From assembly GCA_030295235.1 (NCBI GenBank), contig AP026164.1, positions 1,674,001 to 1,738,000 on the forward strand: a stretch of 64,000 nucleotides of DNA, given 5' to 3'. Shown in pieces: positions 5,362-50,106 of this stretch. Position numbers and translations under genes: made by a program. The number at the start of each line of letters is the position of its first letter. Position 1 is the first letter of the stretch. The notes below the pieces were generated by a model. That model did not search any database. It had not been told where the DNA came from and was given only the letters and a program-made list of their open reading frames with translations. Source of the stretch: Fistulifera solaris (Eukaryota).

Positions 5362-8100
<2,739 letters not shown>

Positions 8101-13444: not shown

Positions 13445-16400
13445 ATGAATTCGGCTATCCTCCGCAGTGCTCGGAATGCTATCTTTTTCCGAAAACCGAA
13501 CCTTCGGACCGGAAGGGCCGCTTTCATGAGCACCCACAGTGGTGATGATGCCAAGAGACCGGAAGCTGTTGCCATGCTTCATCTAGAAGATGGTACGACC
13601 TTGGTCGGAAAGTCGTTTGGGTGCCACACCTCGGTGGAGGGTGAAGTAAGTACAGACGAGTCGAAAAGATACTACTACGTGGTCGTCGATTGTGATATCT
13701 CATGAGAATATCTTTTTTTTCACAGGTCGTCTTCACGACGGGTATGGTTGGATACCCCGAAAGTTTGACGGATCCGTCCTATGAAGGCCAGATTCTTACC
13801 TTGACGCAACCTATGGTTGGTAACTATGGGGTCCCCGACCGCAAGAAGCTAGACGAATACGGTCTACCCGCTGACTTTGAATCAAATCGCATTCATGCCA
13901 CTGGTTTGATTGTGCAGAACTACAGTCATCACTACTCTCACTGGAAGGCTGCGAGCAGTCTCGGTGACTGGCTCAAGGAAGAAGGCGTTCCCGGTCTTTG
14001 TGACATTGATACGCGTATGTTGACCAAGAAAATCCGAGAAAAAGGTGCCATGTTGGGTCGCATTGAAGTCGATCTCAACGCACCGGTTCCGGACTTTTCC
14101 AAAATGGTAGATCCCAACAAGCGCCATTTGGTGGGTGAAGTCAGTGTCAAGGAACCAACAGTTTACGGAAAGGGAAACCCCACCAAGGTCATTGCCGTTG
14201 ACTGTGGTATGAAATACAGCATCATTCGTCAGTTGGTCAAGCGTGGTGTCGAGTTGACTGTCGTTCCGTGGAACTACCCCTTCGCCGCTGACATGCATAA
14301 GTATGATGGTCTTTTCCTTAGCAACGGGCCCGGTGACCCGAACATGTGTATGGAGACTGTCAAAGAACTGGAAAAAGTCATCACTTGTCCGGAAGACCAA
14401 ATCAAGCCCATCTACGGTATTTGCATGGGAAACCAGTTGATTGGTCTCGCTGCTGGGGGCAAAGCCGTCAAGCTTCCGTTTGGAAACCGTGGACAAAATC
14501 AGCCAGTGTTGAATCACCAGACCGGAGAATGCTACATCACTCCGCAGAATCACGGTTACCACATCGATACGTCGACTCTCAAGCCGGGATGGAAGACATT
14601 GTTCACAAATGCCAACGATGGATCAAACGAGGGTATTGGTCATGAAACTCGTCCTTACTTTACCGCCCAATTCCACCCCGAGGCATCATCTGGTCCAACG
14701 GATACCGAGTTCATGTTCGACACATTCTTGGATGCATGCCGATCCAAGTTAAAAGATGGAAAGATCAAATTCCCGGACCGCAAACCTGCGCCTACTCCTC
14801 CCAAGGTGAAGAAGGTCTTGCTTTTGGGTTCGGGTGGCACAAGTATCGGACAAGCCGGAGAATTCGATTACTCGGGTGGCCAAGCCATCAAGGCTCTCAA
14901 GGAAGAAGGATGCGAGGTTGTTCTCATGAATCCTAACATCGCATCCGTGCAAACGAACACTGACGACAAATCTGCAAGCAAGGCTGATCATGTTTTCTTC
15001 CTTCCCGTGACTCCCGACTTTGTCGAAGAAGTCATCAAGAAAGAAAAAACCCGATGGTGTTGTTGTTTCCATGGGTGGGCAGACAGCGCTCAACTGCGCT
15101 GTTGAAATGTATCAAGCCGGCATTTTCCAGAAGTACGGTGTTCATGTCCTCGGTACACCCATTGAGAGTGTTATTAACACAGAGGATCGTCAGCTTTTCT
15201 CGGATCGTCTGAACGAGATCAACGAGAAAATTGCCGAGTCCTACACGGCAGATACCATTAATCAGGCAGTGGAACACGCCAGAAAGGTCGGATATCCTTG
15301 TATGATCCGTTCCGCCTTTGCTTTGGGTGGCTTGGGAAGTGGTATCTGTCAAGATGAGACCCACTTGAAGGATATGGCGCGTAAAGCTCTCTCGGTTTCC
15401 CCTCAAATTCTGGTCGAAAAGAGTATGAAAGGATGGAAGGAAGTTGAATACGAGGTAGTCCGCGATGTCTATGACAATTGCGTCACTGTGTGCAACATGG
15501 AAAACTTTGATCCGCTCGGTATTCATACAGGTGACAGCATCGTGATGGCGCCATCTCAAACGCTCAGTGATGAAGAGTATCATATGCTCCGAGAGACTGC
15601 CATCAAGGTCGTTCGTCACCTTGGTATTGTCGGAGAGTGCAACATCCAGTATGCCCTACATCCCGAATCGCTCGAGTATGCTATCATTGAGGTGAACGCT
15701 CGTCTCTCCCGTTCGTCGGCTCTTGCCTCGAAGGCGACTGGGTATCCTCTTGCCTTTGTCGCTGCCAAACTCTGCTTGGGTATCCCACTTACTGAGGTCA
15801 TTAACTCGGTTACGAAGAAAACACAAGCGGCTTTCGAACCTTCTTTGGACTACATTGTTACTAAGATTCCTCGCTGGGATATGTCCAAGTTCGAAGGAGT
15901 CAACCAAGAGATCGGTTCTGCTATGAAGAGTGTTGGTGAGGTCATGGGTATTGGTCGAACCATGGAAGAGTCTATTCAGAAAGCGCTCCGCATGGTTGAC
16001 CCTTCAAACCCAGGTTTTTCGATGAAGAATCGTTACGAAACGCTTTCTGAATTGAAGAGGGAACTTGCAGTTCCGACGGACAAACGAATTTGGGCTATTG
16101 CACAAGCACTGCATGAAAAGTCTTTGACTGTTTCCGAGATCCACGACATTACTAAGATTGACTTTTGGTTTCTTCGACGACTTGAAGATATTGTGAAGGC
16201 ATGGGATGAAATGGAGACTGTCACTGTTGATGAATTAAGTGACGACCTCATGTTACACGCAAAGAAGATGGGTTATTCAGATCAGCAGATTGCCAACTGT
16301 CTGAAGGGCGCAACTACTGAAATGCAAGTGCGCCAGAAGCGTGAAGCGGCAGGAATTGTTCCTTTCACCAAGCAAATCGATACTCTTGCTGCAGAATACC

Positions 16401-18079
16401 CAGCTGAAACAAACTATCTGTACATGACGTACCACGGCTCGGAAAACGATGTGGAATCTCAAAATGGGGGTATTGCTGTTCTAGGGAAGCGGATGCTATC
16501 GCATTGGATCGTCCATTGAATTTGATTGGTGCGGAGTCAGCGCCATCCGAACTCTTCGTAAAATGGGATACAAGTCAACGATGATCAATTACAACCCCGA
16601 AACGGTCTCAACCGATTATGACGAATGCGATCGTCTCTACTTTGAAGAACTCAGCGTCGAGCGTGTGATGGATATTTACAACCGTGACAAAACTGAAGGT
16701 GTCGTTGTCAGTGTTGGTGGTCAGATTCCTAACGGTATCGCGCTAAACTTGGACAAGAACGGAGTAAAGATCTTGGGCACACCAGCCGCCATGATTGATA
16801 ATGCAGAAGATCGCTTTAAATTCTCAGACATGATCGACGAGATTGGTGTGCAGCAGCCTGCGTGGCGAGAGCTCACTAGCACGCAAAGTGCTATTGATTT
16901 CGCAAGCAAAGTTGGATACCCAGTTTTGGTGAGACCATCATACGTTTTAAGTGGAGCGGCGATGAATGTTGCTTACTCCGACGAGCAGCTCCGCTCTTGC
17001 CTCAATGAAGCCGCCGAAGTCTCTCAAGAGCACCCTGTTGTTATCTCTGATTTCATCCAAGGAGCGACTGAGATTGAGATGGATGGTGTTGGAAAAGATG
17101 GCGAGTTGATTGCTGCTGCTATTCACGAGCACATCGAAAATGCTGGTGTTCACTCTGGTGATGCTACCCTGGTTCTTCCTCCACACACACTCTCTGCGTA
17201 CACTAAGGAACGTGTCCGCGACGCAGCTCGTAAGATTGTAAAGCGTCTGAACATTACTGGTCCTGTCAATATCCAATTCGTGGCCAAAGGAACCGATGTC
17301 ATGTGCATTGAATGCAACGTGCGTGCTTCTCGATCATTCCCCTTCGTTTCGAAGACTATGGGTGTTGATTTTATTGAAGCTGCTACCAAAGCGATCGTCG
17401 GTGTTGACACTTCTGATATGAATCTTCCGACTTTGGATACTCGTGATAGACCTAATGGTTATGTTGGTGTCAAGGCCCCGATGTTTTCTTTTGCACGTCT
17501 CCGTGGATCTGATCCGGTTCTTGGTGTAGAAATGGCTTCGACTGGTGAAGTAGCCTGCTTCGGCGCAAATAAGGAGGAAGCGTTTTTGAAGGCCCTCCTC
17601 TCGACTGGCTTCAAACTGCCCAAAAGAACATTCTGGTTTCTGTCCAGGAAGATCTACAAGATGAGTTCACACATTGCGCCTGGCAGCTCCACGAGCTCGG
17701 CTACAATTTGTACGCTACGCGGGGCACTGCTGCTGTTTTGGAAAAAAATCGTGTCCCCTGCACCGCTGTGCCCTACCCTACCGAAGAAAGTGACGAGGCC
17801 AATGCAGCCGAACTTATCAAGAATGGAACGATCAATCTTGTCATCAACGTGCCTTCGCAGAACTCAAAGCGCCTTGAAGATAACTTCCTCATGCGCCGAA
17901 CAGCTATGGACTTCGGAGCACCTCTTTTAACAAACATGAATTTGGTGAAGATGTTTACAGATTCGATGTACAAGTACAGGAAGGAGGGCATGGCCGGGTT
18001 GGAGCCAAAGACATTATTCGAGCACTACCAAGCCGAATCAGATGCAGACGCATGGACTAGTCCATCAGAGTTCCATTAA
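13445..18079 (+). CDS. CPS1: Mitochondrial carbamoyl-phosphate synthetase (fused GATase + synthetase + MGS; urea-cycle unCPS / CPSIII type)
   Basis: Arg-rich presequence [17 protein letters not shown]; intron 13646-13725; [31 protein letters not shown]; two ATP-grasp domains; MGS domain; no DHOase/ATCase so not CAD; frameshifts near 15049, 16487, 17625. Confidence 0.95.
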
Positions 18080-41845: not shown

Positions 41846-42382
41846 TTACTTTGACTCAAGTACGGCCTTGGCTTTTTCTATACATGATCCATCATTGTGT
41901 GTTTCTCCTTGGTAACAATCCTCCTTGGATTCCGGAATATACACAAACTCTTCGTCGGCTTCTTCCACATTATTTCTTTCTTCCGTCTCCGCGTTCTCTA
42001 CCACAACAATCCCCGCTTGTTCCAAATTTCGTTTCCGTAATTTCGCTTCTTTTTGTTTTTCTCGCTTACGTTTCCGTTTTTCGGTCCGTGCCGCACATTC
42101 TGCCGCGTCGCGTTGCCGTTGTTGTTCGAAGGCACGCGCGGCCGCTTGTTCCTGTGCGGTACGTTGCAATTGCGCTTGACGTTGCATTTCCCGGGCCCGG
42201 GCTTGTCGATAAATGTGAAATTCTCCCGATCCGGCACCGGCAGTGGAACCATACGGATTGACGACTTTTTCCGGTTGGACGGATGTTGTTGTTGTCGTTA
42301 ATGGCTTCACCTGTTCGTACGGAACTGTGCGTTTGTCGGACGCCGTGTCGGTATAGGTTTGAACGGATGAAAAGCGGCCCAT
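41846..42382 (-). CDS. PRKRIP1: PRKR-interacting protein 1 homolog (DUF1168)
   Basis: VNPYGSTAGAGSGEFHIYRQARAREMQR followed by RTEKRKRKREKQK; ATG at 42382. Confidence 0.88.
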   Translation of the reverse strand: MGRFSSVQTYTDTASDKRTVPYEQVKPLTTTTTSVQPEKVVNPYGSTAGAGSGEFHIYRQARAREMQRQAQLQRTAQEQAAARAFEQQRQRDAAECAARTEKRKRKREKQKEAKLRKRNLEQAGIVVVENAETEERNNVEEADEEFVYIPESKEDCYQGETHNDGSCIEKAKAVLESK

Positions 42383-42926
42383 TTTGTTCCAAGAACCTTC
42401 TTTTGCAGAAAACTGTGTTGGACGAAAGAATGGAAAAGGAGTGGACTGGAAGAGATAAACAAGAGCAATCATAAATACGTAGTACAGTAATATGTTTTTG
42501 GTTTGTTCTTGTAGCGTGCCTTTTGCTGTTTTGCACAACGACAAGGATAACGGATGGATGGCAAGGCGGGTGTCGCACTATTCATTCATTACTCTGGAGT
42601 ATAATATTTTCATTCCGATAATGATTCTTCATTCGACTTTCCGAGTGGATGAAGAATGAGTCCCGGTCTGAAAGTACGATGACCGCATACTTGTACTGTA
42701 TTGGTACCGCCTCGCAGCTCATTATTCCTTTATTTGCACTGTGCACTGTGCACAGAAGCAACTATAACATATCAAATAATCAAATAATCAATCAAAGAGA
42801 ATGGCGATCATACGATAAAACTAATCCTAAAAGATGCATCGAAGTCGGTTTCTCAACAAGACTTCCAGCCCCGGCAAAGTGCCGATAATCAGAAGCATTA
42901 ACAACACGAAATACAAAGTATCGTCC

Positions 42927-43056
42927 GGGAGACTTCCGTTAGGTCTCCAACCAGGGTGAACCTCTTCCGATAGCTCTCCCGTTAGGAGAGACGTTAACTG
43001 ACTACATTCAACTTTACAGTAGAGTACGCGCCATTGGATGTGGTACTAATTACTTA
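42927..43056 (+). repeat. MULE left terminal inverted repeat (130 bp)
   Basis: Exact reverse complement of 48643-48772, checked base by base. Confidence 0.97.
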
Positions 43057-43149
43057 GAATCTACTTAGGTTGCTCGATAAAGTAACAAAGCCTTATGAAT
43101 GACAGTCCCGGATGATTCATGAATCACCCCTCTAAGATAACCAAATCCT

Positions 43150-43305
43150 CAATAAACAATAGTCAGCGAAGCGACCGCTCTTGATAAAGAAAAGTCAGCG
43201 AGCGCGACCGCTCTCAATTGTCAATAAAGAAAAACCAGCCTACGTGACCCTGATGCAGCGAGCGCGACCTTCCAATAAAGAAAAACCCAGCCTACGTGAC
43301 CTTCC
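43150..43305. repeat. Subterminal direct repeats inside the MULE
   Basis: (AGT)CAGCGA(G)CGCGACC-like unit x3 and CAATAAAGAAAAAC(C)CAGCCTACGTGACC x2. Confidence 0.8.
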
Positions 43306-43421
43306 ACCCGATCAAGGCTTTCGACGAAAACTACTTCGTGTAAATAATCAAAACCCAATCTACACAATTTCAGTTTCAAACTAGACTTGGTTGATTAATA
43401 TCACACATTACTCTATACGTG

Positions 43422-44000
43422 TCATTCAGCCAATTGAAACATAACATCAAATACAAAAGGTCGGAGATCATCTCCGACTCCAATCTCCGAAATAGAGTCA
43501 AGGAACCATGTCCTCTCATTGAGGGCACGTCGACCATGTTTCAGAATTGTCGCCGCATAAAAACATACATATGGTCCGCAACTATGGCCATCATGTTGCA
43601 ATAGTTTATTGGGAAGACGCATTTCTTGGTATTCCCACGGAGCTAAATCGGGTAATGTTGATTCCTGCTGCTCGCTTGTTGACGCTAAGCATTCTAATTG
43701 CTGCCTCACCGCGCGAATTTAAATAAACCTGAAAGCCAGACAGCATTAGAGTAGTGATCGTCCGGATCTTCGAGGGAGCGAATAAATAACTCGATTATCG
43801 GCATCAACCACCATCAACCACCAGTGCCTCTCCTTGCACATAGGGAATAAATGAATGCCCAAATTGTTCGATTTTGTCATAGAATTCAATGCCACAAACG
43901 CTGAACTAAGCTGCAGTCTACCCTCTCTCTTAATATTTTGGTTGGCGGAATCCCACAGATTACTCATGACATACGACGGGTGTGCAATAACTCCCTCATC
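43422..44000 (-). pseudogene. Ulp1/SENP-like cysteine protease (peptidase C48) region of the MULE, frameshifted
   Basis: LFPMCKERHWWLMVVD (catalytic His ~43825) and LQHDGHSCGPYVC (oxyanion Gln, catalytic Cys ~43579); catalytic Asp not clearly readable. Confidence 0.8.
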
Positions 44001-46159
44001 CGTTCACGGTCTTGCTTGTTATGCTTTCAAGGAAACTGTTCACAATCGCGTCATTGAAATAACATTGCGAGTTCATAATTTCAAGGCATTCACTGGTTAT
44101 GGATGCCGTGGCACCACTTAGCACCTTGATATGATGCTTCTTTCCCTCTTCAGGTCGTGGACGACTCAGCGACCTTTATCAACGCCCTTTGCACTGGATT
44201 GCAAAAAGGAGTGACCGAAGAGATCCCCTGGCATCTTCTTTGTTGTAAATCAGATCGTTTCCATTCTTTCTTGTCCCTACAGTGATAAATGATTCTATTC
44301 CACTTCTTTCCTTTTGCTGTCTCTGCAAGAGTATTCCGCGACGCGTGGATTGCAATATTGTTCTCACTCACAAGTCCTCGCTGGTTTGCTTCCCTTGCGT
44401 TTTCGGGTTGAAGCCCTTCTTTTCATCGTTAAATCATTTGTTTCCGTTTTCCGTAAATGATTCTGGAATATCAAACTCGTGTTCTTGAACCAAACAATTT
44501 AATTGCTCAATGGTTCCCACAAATGGATAAGCTGTGTCGTAAAAATAGGATACGATCTTTGATGGTTCATCAGTAATGACTGGGGGTTGCAAAGGGGCTA
44601 CTCCAATTTGCCTTACTTGTTGTCGACGTAATGAAAATTGATTTTCATTTCTGGGATCTACAATCTTACACGTCTCAGGTCGAAGGGTGTTCTCAAGAAT
44701 TGTGATGAGGTCCCACTAGTGGCAGTAGCGGGACTTGTTATAGCTCTCACGAAGTTCTTCTGGTTTTCGGAATACCCACTGAAAATGAACTTGAGAGCGC
44801 TTCATTTTGTGCCAAGTTCTTTCTTCGCAGATCTAGCGGCATTTTCAGGAAATGCGACGAATCGTCACTGAGATTACCGGATTTGGCGGGACTTGCATTC
44901 TTCTTTTGGATGTCTAATCGCCTTTTAAATACATGTGATGAATCGTCACTAGCAGACGGGCGGGACTTGCATTAGTGGGTTCTGTCTTCGGTATCTTTAT
45001 AATCATATCTTCAGGAATCGTGATACTGGGTTGTTGGACTGTTTCGAATGAGATCTTGGCAGTGCTCTCAGATTACCCCTCTTCATAGTTGGCATCTCAA
45101 CTATGGAAGAAACTGCTGTGGCGGGACTTCCTGCTTTTGCTTCTGCAATCGGTGGCGGTTTCAACTTCTTTTTACGGGCATGAGTCGGGCCTTTGGCTCT
45201 GGAATTTGCTGTCAGTTTCGATCTTTTCCTTTTTTGTGTTGTATTCTCATTCATTGAAGACTCGATAGTCAAGGCATGAGCTCTGATATCAGGTGGTGGC
45301 TTCAGATTTTGACTCTTCATGGTCGGCCTCTCAAAGATTGACGAATCAGTTGTGGCGGGACTTGTTCCTTCAGCTTTTTGATTTGGTGGCTGTTTCGGCC
45401 GCTTTCCTCTTCTCGTTGCCATTTTGACTAATGAAAAATCTGTTGTTGCTGGACTGGAAGCACAAGCTGTTGTGGTCGGGCGGTGGTTTCAAATTCGGTC
45501 TGGATGCGGTCGCTGTCTTCAATATCGATGACTTTGCGGTAGATGGACTTGCCTTCATGCTTTTAAATTGCTACTTGTTTGGATCTCCTCTTTGTTCTAG
45601 TTGTTGGCATTTCATTTACTGAATATTCTGTTGTTGCGGGACTTGAGGCAAAAGCATTATGTGCGGTGCTTGGTTCCACATCTTCATCCTCTAGAATTGT
45701 CGACAGATGACCCGAGTGTGCACTGTTCAGACGGGAATCGTCATGGATGCCTACCTCGACATCATCAACCATGGTCAATTCTTGTTCGTGACTTCTTCTT
45801 TCCGTGTAATCCTTGTCACGAATAATTACTACAATATCTCGGTTACTACCTGACGGAGCAAGGTCCATATCCAGAAGATAGTTATTTTCGTTGTCGTCTT
45901 CAGCGTGAATTTCTGCAGCGTCTTCTCCAGTAAGCTTTAAAATCCGTGACTGGACAATGGCATTGGCTGCATCAGAGTCTTCTACTAAGCCAATCTTGTC
46001 AATATTGTGAAGGCCATGTCCTCCCGGAGGTATCATCGTTGTCCAAATCTTCAGAAGTAATTCCTGCATCCATGTCAATGACGCATGTTGGGAAATGGTT
46101 GACCAGAATTGCGCCAGTTTCAAGTAATGCAGGATCCATGTACCTTCGATCATCTTTGA

Positions 46160-48472
46160 GGTAGTCCAGACACTGTCGAATTGTGTGATTCGGTGATCTG
46201 CAGTGAAAGCAGTGCCGAGGTAAGGGCTTGCCGTCTCTCACGTTTAAGGCCCAAGAGTTGATTCTAGCTGTTGCATGTGTTCCGCCTTTGGTTTGGTCCC
46301 AAAATCAAACAGACCATCGGGCGGCAATCGCTTCTGCTATTGCATCGTTATTTCGACTGAGCTTGTTCTTTGAACTTGGCTCATACTCCTTTGTCATTCG
46401 TGCTGATTCCAGCGCCGATTGCTTCTTTTTCTTTGACTTACGTGGTCCCGGTTCACCATTACTGATTATTCTGTTCCCCGAGTTAAGCTTGTCAGTGTAA
46501 GTTGGTGATGGATAAATGTTTTCTGATTGATAAGCAAGCTTGATATCCCCAAATCCCGGGACGTCAAGTCGCTGGATAGTTGTTAAGAAACTCTGTAAGG
46601 AAGCCGGCGATCACCACTTGTCGGAACTTTTCCAAACTCTTCGTGAGAATTCGCGAAAACACAGAGGGTGGGATTGAGGGCCAAGTTGAGGATCTTGTAC
46701 GTGAAACAAGGTTGATGTGGCCGCAGTAGATTTCCCGCATCGCTGTTCTACTGCAGGAGCAGTACAGGGACGGAGTGCTCGTGGGTTCATAAGTAACATA
46801 CTCCGTCTTCTTGTGCTTTTCAGCCGTACAATTTGAATTTCAAACTGCCATCGGGCATCCTTCAGCATCCTCTATTACAAAATCTAGATCTTCATTGCCT
46901 GTATCTTGCAAGCTTCGAAAGTATATGGTGAGGAACCTAGCAGATTTGGTTGTTATTTCATCTCGAAATTGTCGAAGAGATTCGGCAGCCGCCATCAAAA
47001 AAGTTAGAAATGGCTAGTGGAGGGGTATTAGTCCTCACTTCATGATGTAGAAGCCACTGCTGGGCCGATTCGACATGATTTGTTGAACAGAAACCATATA
47101 AAGGGAACTTGTTTCCAACTGGCACGTGATCGTTGAGCAACCACCTCCATTCGCCGACGTCTCCACTTATCTCTGTGAAGCCATTCACTTCAGCTAGATA
47201 GGTAAAATATAGGGGCTCCCACATAGATTCATGTTGACTCGGTGTATTTCCAAACACAGTCCAATGAGTAGGATGAATTGTCCCAAGAACATAGATAACA
47301 ATTCACACCGGTACTAAGAGTTTCGTTTTCTTCAATTTGTGGAAGCGCTTTGACAAGCTTCTTCGCAGCATCCAAGAAGGCGTTAACATCTGGAGCGCTT
47401 TGCATCTCATAAACCAAGCGACCGCTCTGCCCTCTCAGCGATCGTTGATTGATATTGAATAGATGGTAAATGTTTGAAGAATATGAATCAAGCAATACTT
47501 CACGGAAACAACCAGTCCATAATGTTCTGCCAACGCTCGGACAGCGGCGAGAATGTGTCCTCGGTCAGTGAATACTGGAAACTCTTCGAAATTGAACCCA
47601 GCTTGATACATCATGAGAAGGATATATATCATCCCTTGCTTGTTTTCCGAGGGAATCAACCCAAAACCAAGTGGAATGTTACTTCCATTTCCATCGACCC
47701 CTATGATCGGGACTCCAATTCCATCGTGTTCGGGTATACGGATGTGTGTTCCGTCTAAAAGATTGCAGGAATGCAGGCATTTCTAAAGAAGTGCGCGGCA
47801 TTCTCAATGAACACAGTTGACCGAAAAAGCATGAGTTCTGGTCAGTTTCTAAATTGACGGAGGCATTTGGATTTAGCTCGACATATTTCCGAAGATACTG
47901 GGCCAACAGCTCATTGTACATCAACAAATCCTTTCGGTAGACCTCACGGAAGTGTTTCTTGAGATTTGAATGCATTGTCGGGCCAACTTCGATGTCGAAA
48001 CCCTCTTTCCTGAGGACGGCGTTGAGATTCTTGCGAGTAGCATGACTGTCGAAGTTTGGTGCCTGGAAGCATGTTTTGAAGAAGTCTTGAACAGCAGGAA
48101 TGTTCTGCACTATCATTGATTTTCTGCGGCAGTCCTTTGGGAGGTCGTTTGTTGGAGTGCAAAACAAACTGTGCCTGAAGTTAGTACTAGGATGGTCGTA
48201 GCAATCGAAGTTCGCTTTTCCTTGAACTTAAGTGAGAACGTTTTGCAGCAAGTGCACACGTAGCAAGGGCTTTCTCCGTGCTTGCTGACATCTCGTAAGA
48301 GCTTTCGATCACACAAAAGCGATGCTGCGGAGAAGCTCCTCGTGATCATCCTCAGGGATCGGTTTGTCATAGAGAAACTTTTCAAAATCATACGGACCGG
48401 TTGGAGGAAGTGCCCCATATTTTTGCATAATCGTGACGAATGATCGCCGCCCTTCGTTTCAATGATCGACAT
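46160..48472 (-). pseudogene. MULE transposase (DDE domain + SWIM finger + CCHC knuckle), broken by multiple frameshifts
   Basis: LDGTH..GVDGNG..PLGFGLIPSEN, VFTDRG, YCLIHI, STNHVES; SWIM YCSC..IYCGHI at 46717-46761; CFHCRSPNHTIRQC; probable ATG at 48472. Confidence 0.9.
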
Positions 48473-48642
48473 GTTAATGTTGTAAAAGAGCAACAGTAGG
48501 AACGGAAGGGCAACTATGACAATAAGGAATGCAGCGTTCTGATCATCTTGTCGGCAGTCGGAACGGAACAAACGCACAACGCGAACGATTGTGCGGTTAT
48601 TGTGCGTGACCTAAGTAGAACTAATGATGGATGGAAGGCCTT

Positions 48643-48772
48643 TAAGTAATTAGTACCACATCCAATGGCGCGTACTCTACTGTAAAGTTGAATGTAGTCA
48701 GTTAACGTCTCTCCTAACGGGAGAGCTATCGGAAGAGGTTCACCCTGGTTGGAGACCTAACGGAAGTCTCCC
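48643..48772 (-). repeat. MULE right terminal inverted repeat (130 bp)
   Basis: Exact reverse complement of 42927-43056. Confidence 0.97.
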
Positions 48773-50106
48773 GTATCGTCCTCGTCCTCGCCCTCGTCAC
48801 GGTTCCTTATCTTCGTAGGTTTCGGAATTGTGGGCTTGTTCTTGCCGTATTACAGTTTCTTGTCCCTCTATTCGAACCATCAACAATCTACTGTTACACA
48901 AATACCCGAAAAGATAGAAGAAACAACACCCAATTGGACCCTTCCAGAATTACCGACTCAAATCTACCAAGTCAACGTTTCGAATTTACCACCACCACTA
49001 CCACCACCACCACCCATTCATTCCCAATTTCTCATTTACAAAGGTTTTATGAAAGGACAAGGGACAGGAAATCATATGAATGGACTCCTCGCGACGCATT
49101 TGTTGGCACTCGAATTCAATCGCACCGTGTGTGTCAGTCCCGATTATAAAGAATTTCATTTGGCCTTTCGGTCTCGACAACCTGCGCTACAAAAAGCATG
49201 TGCTCCCATCATACAAGAATACAATGACAATGTCAATCTCCGCATCATGCTCAATAACTTTGGGAAACCACCGAATGAATGTCGCCTCCAACAACAATTG
49301 GCCGATCGGAACCAACCGGTTTGGGTCATTTTGGCCAATACGTATCCTCGGTGGCCCGCGGTCCCGCCCCATTTCTTTTTTCAGTATTATGAACCGACCC
49401 CAGCGTTGTTGGCGTGGTTGCCGTACGAAACATCACCCCAAACTGTCGTGCATTTACGCACCCCCGACAAACACGGGGCCGATGATCGGGCCGGTCTCGA
49501 CAATGCGACATTTGCCAGGTTGTATCAAATTTTACCGTCCGATACCTTCTTAGTTACCAACAATGTGGCGTGGTACGATCATTTCCCTATGTGGCAGCAT
49601 CCAGCTTGGACCATTGTCCAACATACGGCGACTTCCAGATTCTGGGGTGACACACCGGAACATCACGAGAACAATCGGGCCGTACAAGTCTTACAAATGT
49701 GGGTGGATTGGTTCACCATCTTATCGGCGCAACGTGTCTTTCATACGGCATCGGATTTTTCACATTCCGCGATTCATTGGCAAAATTTGGATGCCCGGAT
49801 CATCCATGGCGTCCATGCCAATGGAACTCTGGATTTAATACACGAATCGTGGATCCGGGATGGCCTCACACCCCGATTGGTGGATCGTACCGTCAATGCG
49901 ACGACCGAGAAGGGGGAGTTGCGGTTGTGTCAATCGGACGATGAAATGGTGTGGTTGCGGAGACGAAAAAAGAAAAGTGTAGCGTACATTGTGCGGTAGC
50001 GAGATGTTGGAAAAGAAGCGTGAGCGAATGACGGGGAAAAAAATTCTTGTTCTATGTCTTCTATAATCGCTCTAAATTTGTCATTTCTGTAGTAATTCAA
50101 GTTGAA

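Follow-up and report, generated by a model that had tools for sequence, protein, structure and literature searches.

Does the interval between positions 42918 and 48781 of a 64,000-nt stretch of Fistulifera solaris DNA (contig AP026164.1; hereafter the window) hold a transposase gene with a stray protease fragment beside it, or a mobile element whose own protein is both transposase and protease? Ulp1/C48 protease domains recur in unrelated transposon groups, namely Mutator-like elements (MULEs), CACTA, Ginger1 and Crypton, and published work describes their role there as unknown (here and below, statements on published work refer to parts of the cited texts). A preliminary description of the window, made from its letters, had taken the interval for a complete and very young Mutator transposon carrying a Ulp1/SENP-like region. 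We consider it probable, at roughly 80%, that the interval is one MULE insertion with terminal inverted repeats (TIRs), and that the protein of its family joins a transposase to a C-terminal Ulp1/SENP protease.

Ends of the insertion and the family protein

The ends of the element are defined by four features.

42918-42926, no strand: left copy of the target-site duplication (TSD), 9 bp, GTATCGTCC; the 9-mer is identical directly outside both TIRs
42927-43056, + strand: left TIR, 130 bp, on the 3′ side of the gene; 100% complementary to 48643-48772
48643-48772, − strand: right TIR, 130 bp, on the 5′ side of the gene, 170 nt away from the ATG
48773-48781, no strand: right copy of the TSD, 9 bp, GTATCGTCC, the same 9-mer as the left copy

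Within 42500-49200 there was a single long inverted pair (42926-43056 and 48643-48773; 131 nt, 100% complementary, 5586 nt apart). Its outermost complementary base is part of the TSD, and the TIRs are therefore 130 bp long. A blastn comparison of the two TIRs gave 130/130 identity. The chance of a 9-nt TSD match at a fixed place is about 4e-6. The identical TIRs and the perfect TSD are thus exactly as the preliminary description had them. The duplication has the size typical of Mutator elements (about 9 bp, range 8-11), and the TIRs are as long as is usual there (about 100 bp or more). No further copy or fragment of the element was found elsewhere in the 64-kb window.

To find the protein of this element, we searched a 115-aa piece of its MULE region among longer proteins. 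One of 90 candidates matched, P0001, which was 91% identical to the piece. P0001 has 1685 aa, comes from the source 'jgi' and is annotated 'hypothetical protein'. It was aligned to the minus strand of the window by a frameshift-aware procedure; the alignment starts at the ATG (48472) and ends one codon ahead of the TGA. Among 1665 aligned codons 1652 were identical, leaving 13 amino-acid changes. The alignment also had 39 indel events of 1-5 nt and none larger, about 36 of them frame-breaking. As no gap exceeded 5 nt, P0001 is collinear with the window DNA and free of introns. Introns had been a candidate source of the frame changes, and were rejected for the same reason. The P0001 form is also present in short-read contigs of high depth from two studies (see below), so the element family encodes a single intron-less transposase-C48 fusion of about 1685 aa. 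The open reading frame (ORF) of about 5 kb, which the preliminary description had considered possible for transposase and protease together, was thus borne out at the level of the family.

From the N-terminus, the protein is predicted to consist of a Cys/His DNA-binding cluster, an RNase-H-like DDE core with CxxH, a SWIM finger and a CCHC knuckle, followed by a disordered repeat linker and a C-terminal cysteine protease of Ulp1/SENP type (C48, clan CE). By analogy with other MULEs, the transposase would bind the TIRs, cut and paste the element and make the 9-bp duplications. The corresponding parts of the window are as follows, with residues in P0001 numbering.

43422-48472, − strand: transposase-C48 fusion coding region, ATG 48472-48470, TGA 43424-43422; 39 small indels relative to P0001
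48159-48265, − strand: N-terminal Cys/His cluster (CxxCxC ... H...C), candidate zinc-finger DNA-binding domain
47060-47758, − strand: DDE catalytic core with D244, D307, C331xxH334 and E474
47758-47744, − strand: LDGTH (D244)
47572-47555, − strand: FTDRGH (D307)
47494-47477, − strand: CLIHIL (CxxH, C331/H334)
47080-47060, − strand: NHVES (E474)
46714-46761, − strand: SWIM-type zinc finger, CxC-x9-CxH (577-591)
46452-46472, − strand: conserved motif RIxSxGE, downstream of SWIM; R672, S675, G677 and E678 invariant in 11/11 fusion proteins
46170-46211, − strand: CCHC zinc knuckle (Cx2Cx4Hx4C); zf-CCHC E 0.08, consensus CxxCGxxxHxxRxC
44440-46020, − strand: low-complexity linker; DNA repeats at 45068-45655
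43425-44064, − strand: Ulp1/SENP-like C48 cysteine protease domain
43826-43803, − strand: HWWLMVVD (His codon)
43598-43575, − strand: QHDGHSCG (Gln...Cys)

Every motif named in the preliminary description was located on the minus strand, in the order it gave. Its distance of about 370 bp between the protease region and the left TIR compares with 365 nt measured from the TGA (43424-43422) to the inner edge of the TIR. It did not mention that the motifs of the window copy lie in different frames. The first two frame changes examined fall in T-runs just ahead of LDGTH.

The transposase half was placed by a phmmer search with residues 1-820 of P0001 against 1.84 billion representatives. Relatives numbered 305 at E<=1e-3, 126 at E<=1e-10 and 22 at E<=1e-30. 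From the best 150 of the 305, we scanned 39 against Pfam, comprising every one with at least 800 aa (25 proteins) and a further 14 with 600-800 aa. The MULE profile PF10551 reached its cut-off in three of them, P0032, P0044 and P0092 (phmmer E 1.5e-25, 5.8e-21 and 1.2e-13; 32.1, 30.1 and 37.5 bits), and E<=1e-3 in ten. Among 70 aligned relatives, D244 was kept in 69, D307 in 67, C331 in 68, H334 in 67 and E474 in 67. P0001 is thus homologous to transposases that pass the MULE profile, with the D, D, E triad and CxxH. The SWIM finger lies C-terminal to the core; C577 and C589 were invariant in 11/11 members, and the Pfam SWIM profile passed on the relatives P0011, P0048, P0057 and P0120. In the Atlas, the nearest neighbours of P0001 residues 1-800 were MULE/SWIM clusters. 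A PDB profile search with the 11 members found no solved relative of the transposase half. On this basis we assign the transposase to a divergent branch within the Mutator superfamily, an assignment also supported by the TSD and the long TIRs. The Mutator assignment of the preliminary description is therefore upheld by the 9-bp TSD, the long TIRs and a DDE core with CxxH that is followed by SWIM.

In the 11 family members the N-terminal cluster kept the consensus Y.C...C ... PH...C. By comparison with the abstract of PMC1702500, it is a candidate for the WRKY-GCM1 type. After the SWIM finger, a PPPxY...RIxSxGE stretch (P0001 about 640-680) contained the four positions that are invariant in all 11 fusion proteins. 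The linker of P0001 comprised eight units of a 'SPAT...SS-hydrophobic...basic' repeat. This repeat spanned P0001 947-1290 (window 44712-45655, − strand), and was mirrored by DNA repeats of 72-74% identity. Another set of repeats lay outside the coding region.

43152-43301, + strand: subterminal direct repeats in the stretch that separates the stop codon from the left TIR; a motif of 20-26 nt, repeated about five times

The subterminal repeats were confined to the left end of the element. Their core motif occurred twice at 43152-43301, and the 64-kb window had one more match with three mismatches, outside the element at 5763-5778.

The protease half and the age of the fusion

Is the C-terminal half a true C48 protease, and does it belong to the element? 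On P0001 the Peptidase_C48 profile (PF02902) scored 28.0 bits, above the gathering score of 20.7. The residues had Ulp1-like spacing: a His with an Asp 17 residues on, and a Gln with a Cys 6 residues on. All four aligned to the catalytic residues of SENP2. Among relatives, the His was kept in 13/13 and the Cys in 12/12 with cover. Two sister proteins, P0014 and P0020, had Asn in place of the catalytic Asp and kept His, Gln and Cys. The C48 region named in the preliminary description is therefore confirmed by the catalytic spacing and the passed profile of P0001.

When P0001 alone was compared with PDB sequences, only SENP2 was found, at E 0.96. A profile of 11 full-length members gave SENP2 at 1.5e-22, SENP1 at 3.4e-22 and Ulp1 at 3.9e-17. 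SENP5, SENP7, SENP3 and Ulp2 came next with the same profile (1e-15 to 1e-10); the match to the NEDD8 protease SENP8 was no better than 6e-6. We also modelled P0001 1291-1685 with AF2. The mean predicted local distance difference test (pLDDT) value was 67, with core blocks at 75-93. With this model, the best ten Foldseek matches were SENP1/2, Ulp1 and Ulp2 (E about 1e-6, target-normalised TM 0.5-0.6), and the modelled structure has the Ulp1 fold. In the Atlas, 28 of the 30 neighbours of the protease half were C48 clusters.

The profile is nearer to SENP1/2 and Ulp1 than to SENP8, and cleavage of SUMO is predicted. The protease would act on SUMO, or on a related modifier of the ubiquitin-like kind, and detach it from the transposase itself or from factors at the element that serve chromatin, repair or silencing. 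That such removal helps transposition has, in our estimate, slightly less than an even chance. No ubiquitin-like domain stood out ahead of the C48 core, where the modelled stretch (P0001 about 1291-1470) is of low confidence. By eye, the linkers of P0001, P0002 and P0003 contained short V/I/L runs beside acidic or Ser residues, resembling SUMO-interacting motifs. The linkers of P0002 and P0003 were unrelated in sequence to that of P0001, yet they were also Ser- and acid-rich.

The clan-CE proteases of adenovirus and poxviruses act as processing enzymes. It could thus be proposed that the protease does not act on SUMO conjugates, and instead cuts the fusion in cis into a transposase and other parts. 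The clan CE fold and the very long protein with its disordered linker would suit this proposal, poxvirus I7 proteases were among the weak matches, and P0001 has an SGG-H site at about residue 820. However, the GG site was not kept at the aligned place in P0002, and in the profile search SENP1/2 and Ulp1 (E 1e-22 to 1e-17) were matched far better than the viral proteases (E above 0.1). We consider cis processing improbable. A conserved Gly-Gly self-cleavage site was rejected as a feature of the family, being present in P0001 only.

The age of the fusion could be judged from its relatives. P0002 (1434 aa, source 'ncbi') has the same layout as P0001. The two were 43% identical over transposase, SWIM and CCHC (residues 16-851) and 35% identical over the last 400 residues, and the linker between the halves was not alignable. 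P0002 scored 20.6 bits with PF02902, just below the cut-off. Among the 25 relatives of 800 aa or more, ten carried C48 at or above the cut-off and one just below it. An iterative search revealed a C48-like stretch in 15 of the 25, some of them cut by contig ends. Carriers of C48 occurred in all three main clades of a transposase tree of 57 rows. For the 12 proteins in which neither domain was truncated, we then compared the tree of C48 with that of the transposase (P0043, whose domain was cut, was left out, and no host SENPs were included). The trees shared clades and the deep split, with a Mantel r of 0.79, and 0 of 5000 permutations reached as high a value.

In plant MULEs, ULP domains have been described as transduplicated host sequence with low or undetectable expression. 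In the same way, the C48 region here could stem from a single capture of a host SENP fragment and be carried along as a passenger, without any role for the element. Several results count against this. C48 is in frame with the transposase in both P0001 and P0002, which are only 35-43% identical. The His, Asp, Gln and Cys were kept while the linker became unalignable. In addition, C48 reached the Pfam cut-off in ten of the 25 long relatives, and the domain trees were congruent. We regard a passenger origin as highly improbable. As the tree comparison is confined to the fusion proteins, repeated capture of C48 from related hosts is a formal possibility.

From the layout of P0002, the ten C48 carriers and the congruent trees, we conclude that the fusion is old and not a one-off capture, an outcome that the preliminary description had still left to be checked. 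On this comparative evidence, protease and transposase have co-diverged across a branch of the superfamily. A further proposal, which we make tentatively and consider rather doubtful, is that C48, instead of having been taken repeatedly from hosts, is an ancestral and integral module of a deep Mutator branch with many lineages, in which removal of SUMO (or a related modifier) serves transposition or escape from silencing. Under this proposal, the Ser-rich linker with its short hydrophobic runs may bind SUMO chains. Two proteins of about 2000 aa, P0023 and P0024, had a PTM/DIR17-like Tudor domain (34 and 37 bits) between transposase and C48, hinting at a chromatin reader in that branch.

Several of our results weigh against the assignment of the two halves. 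The gathering score of PF10551 (27.6) was reached neither by P0001 (16.2) nor by P0002 (16.0) nor by the piece from the window (21.6), and only three of the 39 scanned relatives passed it. The sub-threshold matches of these three sequences aligned to the correct region, at E 3e-4 to 0.017. The Pfam SWIM profile gave no match on P0001. Five long relatives had tails of 450 aa or more without C48. Both the cleavage of SUMO by the protease and a need for it in transposition are predictions, and so is the counteraction of SUMO-dependent silencing proposed in the preliminary description.

Copies in public reads and the frame breaks of the window copy

If the family encodes an intact fusion, why is the copy in the window broken? 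In its ATG frame there were 61 stops, and the longest open stretch in the 5-kb coding region was 224 aa. A gap of 5 nt near 43775-43779 relative to P0001 removed the codon of the catalytic Asp of the protease. We scanned 16 stop-to-stop pieces with Pfam, and all matches were below threshold. MULE reached 21.6 bits on 47435-47782 (cut-off 27.6) and Peptidase_C48 17.2 bits (cut-off 20.7), the latter because the domain is split over frames. A C48 profile match, which the preliminary description expected at the protease region, was thus sub-threshold on the window pieces and above the cut-off only on P0001. Five further matches (E 0.01-0.09) were to unrelated families and looked like noise.

Public reads provided other copies. 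Parts of the element were present in three of the five listed runs, none of which is recorded as RNA. X1 (organism A) contained 0.74 of the sampled words, the wetland metagenome X2 0.73 and the sediment metagenome X3 0.06. Compared with the window, the high-depth interior contigs (five X1 records and one X2 record of 5421 nt) showed 17 substitutions and 56-58 gap letters. Nine of the ten coding-region indels printed for the X1 and X2 contigs coincided with P0001 differences. Therefore, the P0001 form is dominant in two studies. The interior depth in X1 was 397-460, compared with 19-24 for each of two flank forms, and in X2 it was 84, compared with 6-12. This suggests roughly 18 element copies per single-copy locus in X1, contig depths being coarse. 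The X1 contigs totalled 51.6 Mb and were even over the intergenic flank, which fits DNA, the library type being guessed. In X1, X2 and X3, loose ends also placed the TIR tips next to other flanks. The element family is thus multi-copy. It is a divergent and probably active TIR-MULE family of a Fistulifera-like diatom.

Some observations on these contigs concern the diversity of copies. The loose ends of X1 at 48412, 43103 and 43213 suggest derivatives that share only the element ends and are possibly non-autonomous. At the joint 43126-43190, a 63-nt replacement in X1 and X2 suggests relatives that differ inside the element. The read depth over 48225-48935 exceeded that over the element interior. 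Among metagenome contigs, the MULE piece gave 282 pattern matches, none of which was confirmed, and a 30-nt TIR tip gave no match.

The differences between the window and the contigs were not spread over the whole element. The outer 242 nt at the left end and the outer 321 nt at the right end were free of them; on the right, the first one lay 322 nt in, at 48450. At the interior rate of about one event per 100 nt, 5-6 events would be expected in these stretches. Relative to P0001, the window had extra letters at 19 places and lacked letters at 20. Host ORFs in the window were long and complete (e.g. a 740-aa AMP deaminase, 557 bits). Since indel letters outnumber substitutions by about 3:1, the ends are free of differences and host ORFs are intact, the about 36 frame breaks are probably consensus errors in the unpolished interior of a repeat.

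It is also possible that the frame breaks are real. The window copy would then be a degenerate, non-autonomous element, and its lineage would be kept mobile in trans by intact members, so that the ends needed for mobilisation stay perfect while the interior decays. The sequence as given, with its about 36 frame-breaking indels and perfect ends, agrees with this, and so do the ends-only derivatives hinted at by the X1 loose ends. A link of the indels to homopolymers was weak: 21 of 36 lay near a run of three or more, where 15.3 were expected (p = 0.04), and six near runs of four or more, where 4.5 were expected. The error signature is therefore not clear-cut. In addition, X1 held both forms at 48450 at similar depth, and thus at least one difference is real variation among copies. 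However, substitutions usually outnumber indels in natural decay, and here the 56-58 indel letters stood against 17 substitutions. Insertions and deletions were about equally common, and all differences lay more than 240 nt inside the element, as polishing anchored in unique flanks would leave them. A truly degenerate copy is, in our view, the less likely reading.

The weak homopolymer link and the two forms at 48450 thus count against consensus error, and with them two further points burden our account of the element: as recorded, the window copy is unable to make the protein (61 stops; the Asp codon region missing), and the depth ratios, taken from contigs, are rough, while the library type of X1 is not on record.

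The site of insertion bears on the age of this copy. One more feature is needed here.

42834-42926, + strand: interrupted host gene, first 31 codons, ATG 42834; the ORF resumes at 48782-49999

When the element and one TSD copy were removed in a script, a single open frame of 437 codons ran across the junction. The insertion lies 84 nt into the host coding region, in codons 29-31. An X1 and an X2 contig joined 42916 to 48792 with 17 other letters, giving an in-frame empty site. This site was one codon shorter than the one reconstructed from the window, in a Ser-rich stretch. F. solaris has been described as allodiploid, and the depth of the empty form equalled that of the filled flank. Thus, the empty form may be a homoeologous locus rather than an allele.

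Accordingly, the two adjectives of the preliminary description fared differently. "Complete" holds for the structure and fails for the coding region, which as assembled has the frame-breaking indels and lacks the catalytic Asp codon. "Very young" is plausible in view of the identical TIRs, the perfect TSD and only 0.3% substitutions relative to the family form, but the possibly homoeologous nature of the empty site takes something from it.

We found no Pfam family for 48782-49999. The interrupted host product had a hydrophobic stretch near its N-terminus. Just upstream of the ATG at 42834, contigs of X1, X2 and X3 all departed from the window sequence and continued with an identical run of 30 loose letters, so the promoter region differs in the other form of the locus. 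A DUF1168 gene starts at 42382 and is transcribed opposite to the interrupted gene. The AMP deaminase of the window was 95% identical to a Fistulifera solaris protein and at most 70% identical to those of other diatoms (70% for Mayamaea, 67% for Cylindrotheca), which confirms the diatom host and places it among the raphid pennates, close to Fistulifera. Elsewhere in the window, a carbamoyl-phosphate synthase (13696-17930, + strand) was split over three overlapping ORFs in different frames, with no break in the Pfam profile coordinates at the first overlap. This is probably due to short introns.

Relation to known elements and significance

How far is this element new? Mutators that carry Ulp1 are already known. 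PMC2836005 lists Ulp1 domains in Mutator transposons of hydra, lancelet, Arabidopsis, maize, rice and melon, as well as in Ginger1, and suggests a role in transposition or repair. The link to land plants drawn in the preliminary description is therefore too narrow, as hydra and lancelet are on this list. In some of the plant, hydra and lancelet elements (including TIR-MULEs of melon, rice and grapevine; PMC2836005, PMC2528002), Ulp1 shares the orientation or the frame of the transposase, and some have TIRs. Compared with them by description only, the present family differs in its diatom host and in having a C-terminal in-frame protease in an intron-less ORF with SWIM and CCHC. The function of ULP in MULEs is stated as unknown in PMC13317346.

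The likeness to Kaonashi-type elements (KI-MULEs), also drawn in the preliminary description, is loose. The KI-MULEs and KIU genes of Arabidopsis Vandal (Hoen 2006, via PMC6117577, PMC13317346 and PMC2528002) are likewise MULEs with an intact-looking C48 across many copies. However, they are described as lacking TIRs and as having the ULP domain in a VANC-type gene of its own that runs opposite to mudrA; PMC2528002, which gives the absence of TIRs and the reversed orientation, also notes same-frame cases and CACTA-ULP elements. The Fistulifera family has perfect 130-bp TIRs, and its protease lies on the same strand as the transposase, in one ORF in P0001. KI domains are more distant from ULPs than is the deneddylase DEN1 (PMC6117577), whereas the profile of the present family was nearer to SENP1/2 (1e-22) than to SENP8 (6e-6).

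Among diatom elements, group 37 'MULE-Diatoms' (Dupeyron 2019, PMC6446971) also has long TIRs (123-124 bp), one ORF and SWIM. Only the features in its table could be compared; a protease is not listed among them, and the main text nowhere uses the words Ulp1, protease or C48. MuDR1_TP and MuDR2_TP of Thalassiosira are cited in PMC2725143. An active MULE of Phaeodactylum (bioRxiv 10.1101/2023.01.02.522487) likewise has a 9-bp TSD, MULE and SWIM, with TIRs of about 200 bp; it has a separate ORF for a UBR-type E3 ubiquitin ligase, and no Ulp1 in the parts that describe it. In the literature on diatom transposons with Ulp1/C48 we found no diatom MULE with C48, Repbase and supplements lying outside the search. 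More remote cases are Ginger1 of hydra (PMC2836005), Cryptons of oomycetes, for which PMC3212892 reports C48, and CACTA of grapevine and rice (PMC2528002). They also combine a mobile-element enzyme with a Ulp1-type protease, but that enzyme is a Gypsy-like integrase, a tyrosine recombinase or Tnp2, and not a MULE DDE core. The present study adds that, throughout a whole branch of the Mutator superfamily, transposase and protease have travelled together.

The family is a compact case, with one intron-less ORF, the catalytic residues of both enzymes intact and many near-identical copies. Across a dozen lineages protease and transposase have co-diverged, which speaks for a benefit of the protease to the element and is a sharper statement than that of a captured gene. 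For work with this genome, uncorrected indels should be considered possible inside the repeats of the assembly. The host is unicellular, and for its closest named relative there is a report of genome editing. If the proposal of an ancestral module is true, about 18 near-identical copies in a transformable diatom would offer a direct system for testing the role of Ulp1 in transposons. An active MULE that lands in 5′ coding regions would also matter for strain stability, and might serve as an insertional mutagen in an oil-producing diatom.

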